A stretch of DNA of 10,844 bases from Thermostichus sp. DRC_bins_24 (GTDB lineage Bacteria > Cyanobacteriota > Cyanobacteriia > Thermostichales > Thermostichaceae), in assembly GCA_039794845.1 (NCBI GenBank), contig JAUQVK010000031.1, positions 1-10,844 on the forward strand, read 5' to 3'. The notes under the pieces are model-generated. The model saw only the letters and a list, made by a program, of their open reading frames with translations. It was not told the DNA's origin and searched no databases. A program made the translations under genes and the position numbers. Every line of letters starts with the position of its first letter. The first letter of the stretch is position 1. Positions 3,418 through 9,748 of the stretch are shown piece by piece.

Positions 3418-4675
3418 TGCAAGACTTTTCGTAGAATGGAGCATTTTTCCTGCCTTCTAACTCTCTGAATGCCCTCCTTGATGAAGCAGATGGGATACAT
3501 CATTGAAGTTGATTTTGGCTTGAATGACTTGTGCTAGAAATAAGCCTATGATTGAATCGAAGCTATTTCGGATCCCAATGCTCGGTCCTGATGATGTCTC
3601 TGGGCTCAAGGCATTGGTTGACCAAGGAGTCATCAATCCCGAAGAAGTTATCGCGATTTTAGGGAAAACAGAGGGGAATGGTTGTGTAAACGACTTTAGT
3701 CGTGGATTTTCCACTCTTGCATTCAGAAGCTACCTCCAAGAGATAACGGGTAAATCTCACAGTGAACTTAGTAAGCAAGTTGCCTTTGTCATGTCTGGAG
3801 GCACTGAAGGTGTCATGTCTCCTCATGCGGTTGTGTTTACTAATCGGGTAAAGAATAATACACTTCAAGATGAGAAATCCTTCGTGGCAGTATCTGGCTT
3901 TACCCGAGAGTTTCTTCCTGAAGAAATTGGTACTAAATCAATGGTATCCGAGGTTGCAAAGTCTGTCATTAAGTTGATGGATAGCGCAGGCATCGACGAT
4001 CCTGAAGATGTTCATTTCGTTCAAGTTAAGTGTCCCCTTTTAACCTCTGAGCGGATTAACGACGCCCACACCCGTGGTAAACAAGTTGTTACCCATGACA
4101 CTTATAAATCAATGGCTTATTCTAGAGCTGCATCAGCTTTGGGAGTAGGTGTAGCAACAAAGGAGCTAAAAGAGGCCGATATTACTGAACAGGATATTGG
4201 TCATAACTGGAGCTTGTACTCATCGGTTGCATCAACCTCTGCAGGGATCGAATTGATGAATTGTGAGCTTATTTTAATGGGAAATTCACGACTGGGATCT
4301 GGAGAGTATTGGATCGGTCATGGGGTTATGCAAGACAGTATAGATCTTCAGGCCGTTTTGAGAACCCTAAAAAATGCAGGGCTGAATTTTGAGGAGTTGC
4401 CCAATCGAAGGGAACTAAATCGAATCGTAAGTGTCTTTGCCAAAGCGGAAATTAGCTCTACAGGGATCGTGCGCAACCGACGTACAACTGCGTTAACAGA
4501 CTCTGATATTAACCATACCCGCCATGCTCGTGCAGTAGTCAATGCTGTGATTGCTTCGGTGGTGGGCGATCCGATGATCTATGTATCAGGAGGTGCGGAA
4601 CACCAGGGCCCGGATGGAGGTGGCCCGATCGCGGTCATCGTTAGCCAATGAAATCTCATTGAAACATTCCTGTAA
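3418..4675. other. Low-GC, probably horizontally acquired single-gene islet
   Basis: Spot counts of 60-nt lines gave 38-50% GC inside versus about 65% in a line of acs. Codons inside often end in A/T. The shift begins at the acs stop codon and ends before the cysteine desulfurase gene. Boundaries are approximate. Confidence 0.75.
3548..4651 (+). CDS. atzD: Cyanuric acid amidohydrolase (AtzD/TrzD, ring-opening amidohydrolase family)
   Basis: 367 aa from ATG 3548 (an alternative ATG is at 3524). All three repeat units carry their Lys/Arg/Ser motifs: [15 protein letters not shown] and [26 protein letters not shown] and STSAG; FAKAE, TRHARA and [15 protein letters not shown]. The Arg in SRAASALG and HARA and the SGG in the last motif are cyanuric-acid-hydrolase-type, not barbiturase-type. 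Confidence 0.92.
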
Positions 4676-5948: not shown

Positions 5949-6002
5949 TGCCTTGTGGGCTGGGTTTGGTTAAGGTATTGGAGAGTTACAGGGCTGGTCG
6001 TC

Positions 6003-6611
6003 ATGGCTGAGATGAGTCCGTATCAGGTGTTGGGAATCAGCGAAGAAGCCTCTTTTGAGGAGATTCAGTCGGCGCGGGAGCAACTCCTAGCCAACTTAAG
6101 CGCCGATGAACAGCAGCAGGAGCGGGTGGAGCAAGCCTACGATGCCATCCTGATGCAGCGCCTACGCCTGCGCAAAGAGGGCAAAATCGCCGTTCCCGAC
6201 CGCATTCGTTACGCCGAACAACGGGCGGCCAACCCTGAGCCGGAGCTGAGTGTGCCCCCACCCGCCAGCAAAACCCCCCGTTGGGTCGACCGTTGGCTGG
6301 ATACGCCTTCTACCACCGATGCCCTTCTGCCCGCGGCCCTGTTGGGGGGGTTAATCGGCTGGGTCGTCTTGGCTCCTGATGAGTATCCTTCGCTGCAACT
6401 GGCGCTGGGGTTGATGGCCTGTATCTATTTTCTGTACCGCAAAGAGCGCCGCTTTGTTCGTTCCTTTCTCTTGGCCTTGGCGGGCCTGAGCCTGGGGCTG
6501 TTGTTGGCCTATGGCATTGCCATTCCCCTCACGGGCGGCGATGCCCCCGGAGCGCTGTTGGTGGGGATCACCTTTGGGGTGATGTGGTTGGTGACCAGTT
6601 TTTTGCGCTAG
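6003..6611 (+). CDS. CPP1-like family protein (chaperone-like protein of POR1; J-like domain plus C-terminal membrane helices)
   Basis: SPYQVLGISEEASFEEIQSAR...VEQAYDAILMQRLRLRKEGKIAVPDRIRYAE is the cyanobacterial/plastid CPP1-like N-terminus (J-like, no HPD), followed by hydrophobic helices. ATG 6003 (or 6012) is preferred over GTG 5955. Confidence 0.85.
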   Translation: MAEMSPYQVLGISEEASFEEIQSAREQLLANLSADEQQQERVEQAYDAILMQRLRLRKEGKIAVPDRIRYAEQRAANPEPELSVPPPASKTPRWVDRWLDTPSTTDALLPAALLGGLIGWVVLAPDEYPSLQLALGLMACIYFLYRKERRFVRSFLLALAGLSLGLLLAYGIAIPLTGGDAPGALLVGITFGVMWLVTSFLR

Positions 6612-7603
6612 CTGTGGGCTTTGATCAGGGCGGCCAATTTGCGCCGCATCAGGATCCCGGGTTTATCCGCCAGCATGTGTTGTTCGGCCTCGAGGTTGAG
6701 GGGTACATCCGGGTGGGTGGTCTCTAAAATATCCCGATCCTCGGCGGCCACGGCCCGATTAAAGCGGAACACCGCATCGGCATCTACCCCAGCCGGGTCA
6801 TCGTTGCGCATGAAAAAGTGGGTAATTTGCGAGGCCGTATCGTCAATGGGGGTGGCAGACATGAAGATCAAGGTAACCAAGCCATTCGGATAGGCAACCC
6901 TGGCCCGATAGGTAAAGGGCAACATCCAGTTTTTCTCGTAAATGCGTAGGGTACGCTCCTCCGGGATCCCGACATTTTGCCGTTGCAGGGGGTTGTTTTT
7001 CACCGGCACGGTGGTGTGGGTGCGGATCCCGTCTTCCAGCTCGATGAGCTCAAAGGAGGCGGGCACCGGATTTTCCGTATCGCCAAAGGTGCCGGTGTGA
7101 ACAATGCTGAAGTGGGCATTGTCGAAGACATTTTCCATCAATCGCAGGCCAGCACAGTCCCAGCGCTCGTTGTAGGTATGCACCCGCCAAAACTGCGGAT
7201 CCTCCACCTCCGGCACCGCCGGAATATCCGCCAAAGGCCGATCCGACAAACACACCCAGACGTAGCCGTAGCGCTCTTGGGCCAAAAAGGCCGGCACCTT
7301 GTAGCTGGCCGGGATCCGTTCCTCGGGTCGGAGTTGCGGCACCTTTACACAGGATCCCTGACGGTTAAATTCCCAGCCGTGATAAGGACACTGAATTTGC
7401 CCCTGGCAGACCTTGCCCTGAGAGAGGCGAGCGGTGCGATGGCAGCAGCGATCCAACATAGCCGCCGGCCGCCCCGCTGCATCCAACCACAACACCAACT
7501 TCTCCCCCAAAAGCTGAAAGGGTTGTGGCCTTTGCCGAAGTGCTTCCAGGGGTAAGGTGGAATACCAAAAGCGGCGCAAGACCGGTTCCTGGGTTACCCG
7601 CAT
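6608..7603 (-). CDS. Rieske non-heme iron oxygenase alpha subunit (VanA/NdmA-like architecture), substrate unknown
   Basis: Rieske motif C-x-H-x16-C-x2-H (DRCCHR...QCPYHGW), mononuclear Fe motif ENVFDNAHFSIVH, and a distal Asp in AAEDRDILE; 331 aa. Confidence 0.9.
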   Translation of the reverse strand: MRVTQEPVLRRFWYSTLPLEALRQRPQPFQLLGEKLVLWLDAAGRPAAMLDRCCHRTARLSQGKVCQGQIQCPYHGWEFNRQGSCVKVPQLRPEERIPASYKVPAFLAQERYGYVWVCLSDRPLADIPAVPEVEDPQFWRVHTYNERWDCAGLRLMENVFDNAHFSIVHTGTFGDTENPVPASFELIELEDGIRTHTTVPVKNNPLQRQNVGIPEERTLRIYEKNWMLPFTYRARVAYPNGLVTLIFMSATPIDDTASQITHFFMRNDDPAGVDADAVFRFNRAVAAEDRDILETTHPDVPLNLEAEQHMLADKPGILMRRKLAALIKAHS

Positions 7604-7631
7604 AGTTCAGGCCCTAAATGAATTTGCCCTC

Positions 7632-7673
7632 AACGTATCAGCTCAGCAGAACCAGTCCGGTAGTGGGCACTAC
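7632..7673 (-). promoter_or_regulatory. NtcA-activated (class II) promoter of the Rieske oxygenase gene
   Basis: GTAGTGGGCACTAC (7660-7673) is GTA-N8-TAC. On the minus strand exactly 22 nt (7659-7638) separate it from TACGTT (7637-7632), a TAN3T -10 box, which is preceded by TGn. The -10 box ends 28 nt before the ATG at 7603. Confidence 0.75.
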
Positions 7674-7810
7674 GATATCAGGTATGCTTTGCAAGAAAAA
7701 ACAGACTTACATTCGTTGTACCCTCTGGGCCAGGAAAATTGACAACAGGTTGTCCCGCATGCACAAGGGATCCAGCCTACACTAGCGGTGGTGGTATCTG
7801 TTTGGGGATC

Positions 7811-9748
7811 ATGCTGGAAGGCAGGTCTAGGGGTGGGTTATCCCGGTTCGCAGCAGCGGGTCGCAGGTCAGTGCCGAGAAACATCCCCCTAGAGGCGGAC
7901 CAGAAGGGCCAGCGTCCCACCCAGCAGCGCCGACGCAGAGGCTCATGGCTTGCTTCTCAAGGGATCCATGGGCAATGGGGGGCAGGCTTGAGGTGGATTT
8001 TGGGAAAGCGGATCCCGACGAGCCGGCAACTGGACTTCCGCACCTGGATGACCGGATTGGTTCTGGTGATCGCCCTGTTTCTGACGGGGGTACGCCTGGT
8101 TTACCTGCAGCACCAACAGGCACCCATGTTGCAGGCACGGGCCCAAGCCCAACAACGCGCCCAGTTACGACCCTTCATTCCCCGCCGTTCTATTTTGGAT
8201 CGTCACTCCATCGCCAAGCAGCAGGCGGAACTGTTGGCGGTTGATCGCCCGGTTTATACGCTTTGGGCCCATCCCCGCCTGTTTGGCAGACGCACCCCAC
8301 AGGAGATTGCCGCGGCCTTGGCTCCGCTGTTGCGTCGTCCGGTGGAGCAACTGACGGAACAGCTATCGGCCCATCATCGTGCTGTGCGGGTGGAGCGCTG
8401 GGTATCGCAGGAGGTGGCGGATCAAATTCAGGCTTTGTACCTGGATGGGTTGGAATTGGTGAGCGAGCGGCAACGCATTTACCCACAAAAAGAGATGGCC
8501 GCCGAAGTGGTGGGCTATGTGGATCTGGATCATCAAGGGCAAGCCGGGTTGGAATATTCCCAACAGGGATTAATGGAGCGAACCGTTCAGCCTGTTACGA
8601 TTCCCCGCGATGGCTATGGACAGCTGTTGGCCGCGGAAGTGCCGGAAGGCTTGCTGCAATCTCGAGAGACAGTGTTGCAACTGACCCTGGATATGCGCTT
8701 GCAACGGGCCGCCCGCGCTGCTCTGAAAACCCAACTGCAACGATTTCAAGCGCTGCGGGGCACAGTGATTATTCTGCAGCCGCAAACGGGAGAAATTTTG
8801 GCTTTGGTAAGTGAGCCCACCTACGACCCCAACCGCTATTTCGAGTTTGATCCGGGCCTGTTTCGCAACTGGGCGGTGACGGATTTGTACGAGCCGGGAT
8901 CCACCTTCAAACCAATCAACATCGCCATTGGTCTGGATGCTGGGGCCTTCAGAGCAGATGAACGGGTATACGACGAAGGCCGGATCATGATCGGTCAGTG
9001 GCCGGTGCAAAACTACGATTACAACCAGCGGGGTGCCCATGGCTGGATGAGCGTCACCGATATCCTCAGGCAATCTAGCAATGTGGGGATGGTGCATCTG
9101 ATGCGCAAGCTGGATCCCCGCCAGTACTACAACGCCTTGGTCCGGCTGGGGCTCAACGAGCGCAGTGGGGTGGATTTACCCTTTGAGCCCGCCAGCCGCC
9201 TGAAACCGCTGCGTCAATTTGTCACGGTGCCTGTGGAACGGGCCACCGCTGCTTTTGGCCAAGGCTTTGCCCTCACTCCCCTACAGCTGGCCAGCTTGCA
9301 TTGCATCATCGCCAATGGCGGGTTGAAAGTGCAGCCCCATGTGGTGCGGGGCTTGGTAGAAAAAGACACCGATACGCTGGTGTGGGGATCCGCCCAACCG
9401 CGGCCGATACGGGTTCTCTCAGAACAAGCCACCTTGAGCGTGCGCACCCAGATGCGGGATGTGGTGGACTTTGGTACGGGTCAGTCCGCCAAAATTGAAG
9501 GCTACGAAATTGGGGGTAAAACTGGCACTGCCCAGAAGGCAGGCCCACGTGGAGGGTATTTACCCGGCAAACGGATCACCAGCTTTGTGGGATATTTCCC
9601 CGCCATTCGCCCCAACTATGTAATTTTGGCAGTGCTCGACGAACCGCGTGGGGAAGATGCCTTCGGCTCCACCACCGCTGCCCCCATCGTCCGCTCCGTG
9701 ATTCAAGAGATCATTACCCTGGAAGGGATTCGCCCGAATGCGACTTGA
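7811..9748 (+). CDS. ftsI: Class B penicillin-binding protein, FtsI/PBP3-like transpeptidase
   Basis: One TM helix (WMTGLVLVIALFLTG), a dimerisation domain (RRSILDR, RIYPQ, GQAGLE, LTLD) and transpeptidase motifs EPGSTFKP (SxxK), SSNVG (SxN) and GKTGTAQ (KTG). The start is uncertain; ATG 7811 is chosen over TTG 7739 because a TACACT -10-like box lies at 7778-7783. Confidence 0.88.
   Translation: MLEGRSRGGLSRFAAAGRRSVPRNIPLEADQKGQRPTQQRRRRGSWLASQGIHGQWGAGLRWILGKRIPTSRQLDFRTWMTGLVLVIALFLTGVRLVYLQHQQAPMLQARAQAQQRAQLRPFIPRRSILDRHSIAKQQAELLAVDRPVYTLWAHPRLFGRRTPQEIAAALAPLLRRPVEQLTEQLSAHHRAVRVERWVSQEVADQIQALYLDGLELVSERQRIYPQKEMAAEVVGYVDLDHQGQAGLEYSQQGLMERTVQPVTIPRDGYGQLLAAEVPEGLLQSRETVLQLTLDMRLQRAARAALKTQLQRFQALRGTVIILQPQTGEILALVSEPTYDPNRYFEFDPGLFRNWAVTDLYEPGSTFKPINIAIGLDAGAFRADERVYDEGRIMIGQWPVQNYDYNQRGAHGWMSVTDILRQSSNVGMVHLMRKLDPRQYYNALVRLGLNERSGVDLPFEPASRLKPLRQFVTVPVERATAAFGQGFALTPLQLASLHCIIANGGLKVQPHVVRGLVEKDTDTLVWGSAQPRPIRVLSEQATLSVRTQMRDVVDFGTGQSAKIEGYEIGGKTGTAQKAGPRGGYLPGKRITSFVGYFPAIRPNYVILAVLDEPRGEDAFGSTTAAPIVRSVIQEIITLEGIRPNAT

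Follow-up and report, generated by a model that had tools for sequence, protein, structure and literature searches.

What would a cyanobacterium do with a Rieske oxygenase placed behind a promoter of nitrogen control? The question is posed by a gene on the minus strand of a 10,844-bp stretch of DNA from Thermostichus sp. DRC_bins_24 (GenBank assembly GCA_039794845.1, contig JAUQVK010000031.1). This stretch, here called the window, is the whole of contig C31 in a genome (G000) of 3.50 Mb, 115 contigs and 56.9% G+C, at 99.9% completeness. Named relatives assign it to Thermostichus, the JA/OS lineage of 'Synechococcus' from hot springs. The gene encodes an alpha-only oxygenase, and upstream of it lies a box-and-hexamer motif of the type bound by NtcA, a protein activator that answers nitrogen status. 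On balance we favour an NtcA-activated enzyme, probably supplied by ferredoxin, that hydroxylates an N-heterocycle and has its place among eight or nine paralogues behind NtcA-type promoters. Gene and promoter are laid out as follows:

6608 to 7603, minus strand: coding sequence of the alpha-only Rieske oxygenase, 331 amino acids (Rieske and VanA_C domains), from the open reading frame and its translation, with the ATG at 7603.
7660 to 7673, minus strand: candidate NtcA site GTAGTGCCCACTAC, a perfect GTA-N8-TAC and a 6+6 palindrome, read directly and conserved in the related genome G010.
7632 to 7640, minus strand: extended −10 element TGaTACGTT, with the TAN3T hexamer TACGTT at 7637 to 7632 and the TG at 7640 to 7639.
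7625, minus strand: predicted transcription start, placed by geometry only (box centre 7666.5 taken as −41.5) and in agreement with the initial annotation, giving a 5′ untranslated region of about 22 nt.

The box reads GTA-GTGCCCAC-TAC from 7673 to 7660 (GTAGTGGGCACTAC on the plus strand), and a spacer of exactly 22 nt (7659 to 7638) leads to a hexamer that ends 28 nt ahead of the ATG. The initial annotation had described a palindromic box, a 22-nt spacer and TACGTT with an upstream TGn, and direct reading of the sequence bears out each of these exactly. A search of the minus strand from 6400 to 8000 returned no sigma-70 −35/−10 pair. This structure of box, about 22 nt, TAN3T and no −35 agrees with the class II NtcA promoter as defined in extracts of PMC3898017; the consensus site and canonical architecture are set out in extracts of that source and of PMC5714215. 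The class II promoters of glnA, nirA, urtA and ntcB share the same GTA-N8-TAC, 22 nt, TAN3T and absence of a −35. Unlike these known targets, the target in the window is a Rieske oxygenase, and with it a whole paralogous family.

Taken singly, the match would carry limited weight. The genome holds 325 GTA-N8-TAC sites, below the 610 predicted from composition, and the complete motif (GTA-N8-TAC, N22, TAN3T) occurs 12 times, both strands counted, where those 325 sites would lead one to expect about 6.5, so that a lone perfect match is modest evidence. At that rate about 2e-4 motifs are expected within an intergenic stretch of at most 135 nt, and among the intergenic positions of the window the complete motif occurs only at the Rieske promoter. 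The evidence becomes strong because the motif is associated with nitrogen genes, is conserved at the G010 orthologue and is accompanied by no sigma-70 pair.

Of 40 relatives, G010 alone carries a true orthologue (91% amino-acid identity), in a retained Acs-AtzD-NifS-CPP1-Rieske synteny. The promoter of this orthologue, again at −70, reads GTAGCCCCCACTAC-N22-TATCCT, with a hexamer that is still TAN3T. Pairwise alignment finds the sequence from the box through TGATA conserved, and the flanks diverging and carrying indels. One further conserved element lies upstream:

7687 to 7705, minus strand: 19-nt block TCTGTTTTTTCTTGCAAAG, identical at 19/19 positions in G010 and 13 nt upstream of the box.

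Between this block and the box, 20–29 nt are unalignable with G010, including a 9-nt indel. The block could be the site of a second regulator, an UP-like element or a piece of the promoter of the divergent PBP gene.

The association with nitrogen genes emerges from the motif across the genome. GTA-N8-TAC or GT-N10-AC, followed 22–23 nt on by TAN3T, lies upstream of ntcA itself (TIGR03697, 392 bits, cut-off 245), glnA and nirA, and likewise upstream of glnN (type III glutamine synthetase). It also precedes genes for a primary-amine oxidase (NF008559, 654 bits), a cytosine-deaminase-like amidohydrolase, a LysR regulator, an allantoate-amidohydrolase/carbamoylase-family enzyme and several ABC binding proteins (two NMT1-type, one Bmp-type, plus peptide-type). 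The 65 candidate sites include those of a copper primary-amine oxidase (C11), GlcD-like FAD oxidases (C46, C69), a TIGR03364 FAD oxidoreductase (C33), a flavin amine-oxidase-like gene (C106) and an amidohydrolase/deacetylase (C94). Judged by these genes, the NtcA-type motif acts as a predictor of nitrogen genes in this genome. As an in silico set they form an unusually broad organic-nitrogen catabolic repertoire for a cyanobacterium.

The same motif marks the whole oxygenase family. Seven full-length paralogues of 50–60% identity (C31, the window copy, and C103, C69, C86, C37, C44 and C97) are joined by a split copy (C101) and a distant one (C25, 32% identity), and all nine have a GT-N10-AC box 22–23 nt ahead of a TAN3[T/A] hexamer. 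In the close copies the box lies 68–236 nt upstream of the ATG and the hexamer is TAN3T, save for TACACA at C37. The strict motif (GT-N10-AC, N22/23, TAN3T) precedes 6/7 full-length paralogues (binomial P=2.6e-9), against a background, within 400 nt upstream, of 77/2870 crude genes called from open reading frames (2.7%); the relaxed motif, with TAN3[T/A], precedes 8/8 close copies (P=5e-12) against 111 (3.9%). Strict GT-N10-AC matches number 215 genome-wide on both strands. The initial annotation had called the gene stand-alone, with no adjacent reductase, beta subunit or transporter. This stands for adjacency, since annotation of the window finds no reductase, beta or small subunit, or transporter adjoining the gene, the neighbours being CPP1-like and PBP2/FtsI-type genes; it fails for the genome, where the gene is one of seven full-length paralogues.

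Two of the outlying copies have features of their own. The distant C25 copy sits in an operon of Bmp(PnrA-like) binding protein, Rieske oxygenase, double ABC ATPase and permease (G000:C25:128930-133840; locus L058, 4780-9658), whose first gene has a perfect GTAGCAGAGAATAC-N22-TACTCA upstream; an oxygenase gene within an ABC importer operon is unusual. The other is interrupted:

G000:C101:1379-1914, minus strand: split Rieske copy, two short open reading frames that match residues 1–90 and 230–328, with the middle missing.

This split gene, probably a decaying copy, retains an upstream GTAGCTCTCAGCAC-N23-TAAGGT.

Conservation extends through the genus. In six other Thermostichus genomes all 18 full-length homologues carry the motif, 13 with TAN3T and five, all of the C37 type, with TAN3A, in a count that left out fragments and stop-interrupted copies. 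Within orthologue groups the box is near-identical and the spacer diverges (GTAGCAAGCACAAC is identical in three genomes, with GTAGCAAGCACGAC in a fourth). The initial annotation had proposed asking whether orthologues keep the box, and we find it kept in the sole orthologue G010, in all paralogues here and in 18/18 full-length homologues of the genus.

The protein itself is modular, with a Rieske domain (Pfam, 74.4 bits, cut-off 20.3) and a VanA_C domain (70.9 bits, cut-off 23.5); a sub-threshold KshA_C is the only other Pfam match listed. The Rieske cluster ligands are C53-x-H55 and, 16 residues on, C72-x-x-H75, and the iron site is formed by H164, H169 and D289 together with a bridging D161 and N158. 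A 60-sequence alignment shows no variation at any of these positions, which upholds the complete set of Rieske and mononuclear-iron ligands reported initially. Searches of solved structures by sequence return NdmA first (E=2.7e-36, residues 7-330), then GxtA (6e-36), SxtT (2e-34), NdmB and dicamba monooxygenase, at an identity of about 27–30% to the closest relatives NdmA and SxtT/GxtA. An AlphaFold model built from the 60-sequence alignment (pLDDT 92.1) reverses this order in Foldseek, where GxtA/SxtT lead (TM 0.84–0.86), followed by NdmA (0.81–0.83) and then DdmC (~0.8) and NdmB. The iron-site residues align with Asn158, Asp161, His164, His169 and Asp280 of SxtT/GxtA as given in extracts of PMC7293229. 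NCBIfam offers no equivalog (best match 65 bits against a 600-bit cut-off), and the ESM Atlas holds only generic 'ring-hydroxylating dioxygenase' clusters. The enzyme is read as an alpha-only, probably alpha3, Rieske non-haem-iron monooxygenase of the NdmA/SxtT-GxtA/HpxD-like group.

A pigment oxygenase of the PaO/CAO/Tic55 kind is ruled out, the 331-residue protein giving no Pfam match to the PaO C-terminal domain and falling with NdmA and SxtT/GxtA. The initial annotation had set a grouping with PaO/CAO against its own proposal; the VanA_C match, and the company of NdmA and SxtT/GxtA, place the protein elsewhere. That proposal, a nitrogen-regulated Rieske oxygenase, is supported as far as sequence reaches by this grouping together with the conserved box.

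How such an oxygenase would obtain its electrons is suggested by gene content. No reductase is encoded near any of the nine Rieske copies, and a search of the genome found no VanB/NdmD-type reductase (NAD_binding_1 plus Fer2), though a reductase of another class may be encoded. NAD_binding_1 occurs in only two proteins, one of the FNR type and the other resembling a membrane ferric reductase, and neither carries a fused Fer2. Because no dedicated reductase is encoded, a general ferredoxin is the candidate donor, and the enzyme is probably ferredoxin-fed, consistent with this gene content.

Substrate class is best approached through the genes around relatives. In G037 (52% identity to the window protein) the genes for the urate hydroxylase HpxO (602 bits against a cut-off of 500), the Rieske protein and guanine deaminase (590 bits) share one strand. 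In G039 (55% identity) the Rieske gene has an NtcA-type box and faces a convergent guanine deaminase gene, with an EamA transporter divergent. G025 (49% identity) has an NMT1 binding protein followed by the Rieske gene, with a formamidase and an ABC ATPase downstream and, divergent upstream, an AtzD-family amidohydrolase, a PyrE-like gene and a dihydroorotase. Relatives of the C25 type keep similar company: in G026 the Rieske gene is followed on one strand by HIU hydrolase and OHCU decarboxylase, beside a hydantoinase, and in G029 its neighbours include PbuX (a xanthine permease), HpxO and an allantoate-amidohydrolase-family gene. A third locus of this type holds a tandem array:

L185 (G040:C35), 6770-11217: three tandem C25-type Rieske genes, then an XdhA-like [2Fe-2S] small-subunit gene.

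The XdhA-like product, which matches TIGR02963 at 198 bits and falls short of the cut-off, may serve these oxygenases as a partner in electron transfer. Within the Thermostichus genome, the Rieske gene of C69 is followed by an NMT1-type binding protein, with a glutathione-dependent formaldehyde-activating enzyme 2 kb downstream; that of C97 is followed by a DIOX_N/2OG oxygenase. The homologue contexts would place the query-family and C25-type subfamilies in purine or pyrimidine breakdown, and the nitrogen-scavenging role first suggested for the gene is supported, at the level of context, by homologues in purine-catabolic operons and by the motif ahead of nitrogen genes.

The proposed sequence of events is as follows. 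Nitrogen limitation would raise 2-oxoglutarate and bring NtcA onto the box at 7673-7660, centred near −41.5, from where it would recruit RNA polymerase to the −35-less TGnTACGTT for a start near 7625. General ferredoxin would supply electrons to the oxygenase, which would hydroxylate an imported or salvaged heterocycle of purine, pyrimidine or triazine type. Amidohydrolases would then open or deaminate the ring and free ammonium, the AtzD-type enzyme encoded 2 kb away being a candidate for this step. The eight or nine paralogous oxygenases, all behind NtcA-type promoters, probably differ in substrate.

Several observations weigh against this proposal. NtcA binding, induction and the transcription start of the window gene are predictions from sequence; the sequencing runs listed as containing the stretch are four of DNA type and none of RNA. 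Because the Thermostichus genomes are related to one another, the P values exaggerate how independent the cases are. Beyond the genus the motif thins out: its strict form stands within 300 nt of only 1/15 homologues (G039), and the clusters of G037, G025, G026 and G040 have no NtcA-type motif upstream. Nine of the 12 annotated query-family loci from outside the genus have unrelated neighbours. The canonical urate route is missing here: searches of this nearly complete genome turned up neither uricase nor HpxO, HIU hydrolase or OHCU decarboxylase, and no guanine deaminase above cut-off (four TRZ/ATZ-type relatives are present). The AtzD gene has no NtcA-type motif upstream of its start at 3524, and an AtzD gene and a query-family Rieske gene lie no more than about 3 kb apart only in G000/G010, counted as one event, and in G025, where the distance is about 2 kb, making two independent cases. 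The window copy is also divergent, and the context of its relatives may therefore not transfer to it. On a quick IQ-TREE tree with midpoint root it shares a long stem (1.11 changes per site) with its G010 orthologue, and the two together form the sister group of the C103 and C69 types (SH-aLRT 99). The window copy deviates at 16/138 near-invariant family columns, where C86 deviates at only 1/133.

In five further regions from outside the genus the relaxed motif occurs in 3, and a perfect box with N21 lies upstream of the C25-type gene of G029. Since the box is mostly missing outside the genus, NtcA control of the Rieske family appears lineage-specific, and its distribution suggests a property of Thermostichus shared with a small number of other lineages. 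A peptide-pattern search for related loci gave mostly distant homologues (~30% identity) from Solirubrobacterales and other non-cyanobacteria; from it we used the G010 orthologue locus (L059) and a few loci for the riboswitch comparison below. The missing urate genes narrow the chemistry: with no follow-up step for its product, a xanthine-to-urate role is unlikely here and the substrate is probably not simply xanthine. As the sole reading, a plain xanthine-to-urate role is rejected. The genome encodes one MoCo hydroxylase.

The main rival keeps the promoter and changes the reaction. An oxidative N-dealkylase (NdmA-, GbcA- or Stc2-like) would demethylate secondary or tertiary amines, or heterocycles that bear methyl groups, and release primary amines for NtcA-controlled amine oxidases, which would yield ammonium. 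It draws on NdmA, an N-demethylase, as the top solved sequence match, on the primary-amine oxidase and flavin amine-oxidase-like genes behind NtcA-type promoters, and on two paralogue neighbourhoods: the formaldehyde-activating enzyme downstream of the C69 copy, and C37, where a flavin amine oxidase gene runs divergently from the Rieske gene, which adjoins a polyamine-type ABC transporter and a formamidase. We nevertheless consider it unlikely. The ~29% identity to NdmA is the same as that to the hydroxylases SxtT/GxtA, an NdmD-type reductase was not found in the genome, and the clearest homologue operons concern hydroxylation of the purine ring and not demethylation.

Less probable still, and by some distance, is an endogenous substrate, with the enzyme tailoring or turning over a pigment, cofactor or secondary metabolite during nitrogen-starvation bleaching and NtcA directing internal recycling. 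The closest folds, SxtT/GxtA, are indeed biosynthetic cyanobacterial tailoring enzymes, most copies have no neighbouring transporter, and NtcA regulons reach past nitrogen uptake according to extracts of PMC5714215. Against it, besides the missing PaO domain and PaO/CAO grouping, stands the substrate site: residues Q226, D239, M/Y255 and T/V276, which in SxtT/GxtA hold the saxitoxin intermediates and their guanidinium rings (extracts of PMC7293229; Q226/D239/M255/T276 in SxtT), are replaced by T231, I246, H262 and A284. Because these residues differ, the window protein is not an SxtT/GxtA orthologue; H262, aligned with the SxtT selectivity position 255, is Q in 97% of the other family members. 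Three copies are tied to ABC binding proteins (C69, C25 and, elsewhere, G025), and the homologue clusters are catabolic, not biosynthetic.

It is very improbable that the box matches by chance or survives as a vestige, with another promoter driving the gene free of NtcA: although about half of the 12 complete genomic matches are expected at random and several are intragenic or have no downstream gene, the box, spacing and TGATA persist in G010 while the flanks diverge, the motif stands at 9/9 copies here and 18/18 in the genus against a 2.7–3.9% background, and no alternative sigma-70 promoter lies on this strand from 6400 to 8000.

Comparison with characterized systems sharpens the hydroxylase proposal. 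SxtT/GxtA (saxitoxin hydroxylases; PDB 6wn3, 6wnc) are the best fold match, are equal in length and number N158, D161, H164 and H169 identically; extracts of PMC7293229 describe them as alpha-only, cyanobacterial and without a cluster reductase, with VanB serving in vitro. They are biosynthetic, whereas the window gene has a nitrogen-regulated, catabolic context, and the substrate-binding residues are not shared. NdmA/NdmB of Pseudomonas putida CBB5 (PDB 6ick, 6icl), which act on purine, have the Rieske plus VanA_C architecture and ligands in common with the window protein. NdmA works with the dedicated reductase NdmD and is without NtcA regulation, whereas no NdmD type occurs here. At ~29% identity and with no NAD_binding_1 plus Fer2 reductase, membership of an NdmA/NdmB-type system is rejected. 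HpxD, the molybdenum-independent hypoxanthine/xanthine hydroxylase of Klebsiella with its partner HpxE, may be a functional analogue by way of the G037 and G039 contexts. A homologue of 54% identity (P0027) bears the NCBI name HpxD, a name that no NCBIfam model backs. No HpxE-type partner is adjacent to the window gene, and the genome is without urate-to-allantoin genes.

A further parallel is the proteobacterial xanthine-riboswitch (NMT1 motif) regulon, in which, from extracts of PMC7373994, the same families are co-regulated as here: NMT1 binding proteins, hcaE-type Rieske proteins, DIOX_N/2OG dioxygenases, metal amidohydrolases and nucleoside transport. The xanthine riboswitch is a purine-sensing RNA OFF switch, whereas NtcA is an activator protein. 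No match to the riboswitch family RF03054 was found in 11 loci around non-cyanobacterial homologues, nor in any of three of their genomes (0/3). In the class to which G041 belongs, 1/151 genomes has two xanthine riboswitches, with no homologue of the window Rieske gene within 16 kb of them. Within the portions of the literature that our search reached, no publication was found that links NtcA to Rieske oxygenases or describes this Rieske family.

The remaining features of the window are its neighbouring genes:

5955-6611, plus strand: CPP1-like gene, convergent with the Rieske gene, with a 4-nt overlap.
7739-9748, plus strand: PBP2/FtsI-type transpeptidase gene, divergent from the Rieske gene.
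3524-4651, plus strand: AtzD/TrzD-family ring-opening amidohydrolase, by Pfam PF09663 and NCBIfam NF052395.

The stop codons of the CPP1-like (plus) and Rieske (minus) genes overlap by 4 nt at 6608-6611, which leaves no terminator space between the two. Farther left of the CPP1-like gene lie a NifS/IscS-like gene, the AtzD/TrzD amidohydrolase, acetyl-CoA synthetase and RodA. The genome is also rich in GGGATCCC, which occurs 4573 times against 86 expected and has four copies in the window; GCGATCGC, the classical HIP1 word, has 78 occurrences where 86 are expected. Given this excess, and a HIP1 word that is not enriched, GGGATCCC looks like a lineage-specific highly iterated palindrome.

Of these neighbours the AtzD/TrzD gene bears on function. 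It matches PF09663 at 509 bits and NF052395 (cyanuric acid amidohydrolase) at 521.6 bits (cut-off 360), and its linkage to the Rieske gene, at about 2 kb, is kept in G010. The family numbers 19 genes in 13/41 genomes, some with two copies. Control of this gene by NtcA is rejected on the missing motif; as a downstream partner of the window oxygenase the enzyme is suggestive, through a weak link of proximity.

A bolder extension of the hydroxylase proposal, which we offer tentatively and with some doubt, unites these parts. An NtcA-commanded battery of eight or nine ferredoxin-driven Rieske hydroxylases, together with NMT1/Bmp importers, TRZ/ATZ-type deaminases, a formamidase and the AtzD-type amidohydrolase, might constitute a molybdenum-independent mineralization of purine-, pyrimidine- or triazine-like compounds in nitrogen-poor hot-spring mats, in which the window copy would make a trihydroxylated ring that is opened by the neighbouring cyanuric-acid/barbiturate hydrolase. 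If true, the AtzD family would gain a natural, non-xenobiotic role.

What is new here is a regulon-level set of known kinds of parts, not a new kind of system. Use of organic nitrogen by cyanobacteria is known chiefly for urea, cyanate and amino acids, and recently guanidine; to our knowledge, breakdown of N-heterocycles that is initiated by an oxygenase and controlled by NtcA lies outside the described NtcA regulon. Since the promoter, the regulator and the candidate substrates are all specified, the connection between Rieske oxygenases and NtcA lends itself to direct test. If confirmed, it would provide thermostable, alpha-only, ferredoxin-run Rieske hydroxylases that are attractive for light-driven biocatalysis, would explain an oxygenase gene content that varies from 0 to 13 matches per Thermostichus genome searched, and would constitute a new branch of the cyanobacterial nitrogen-stress response.

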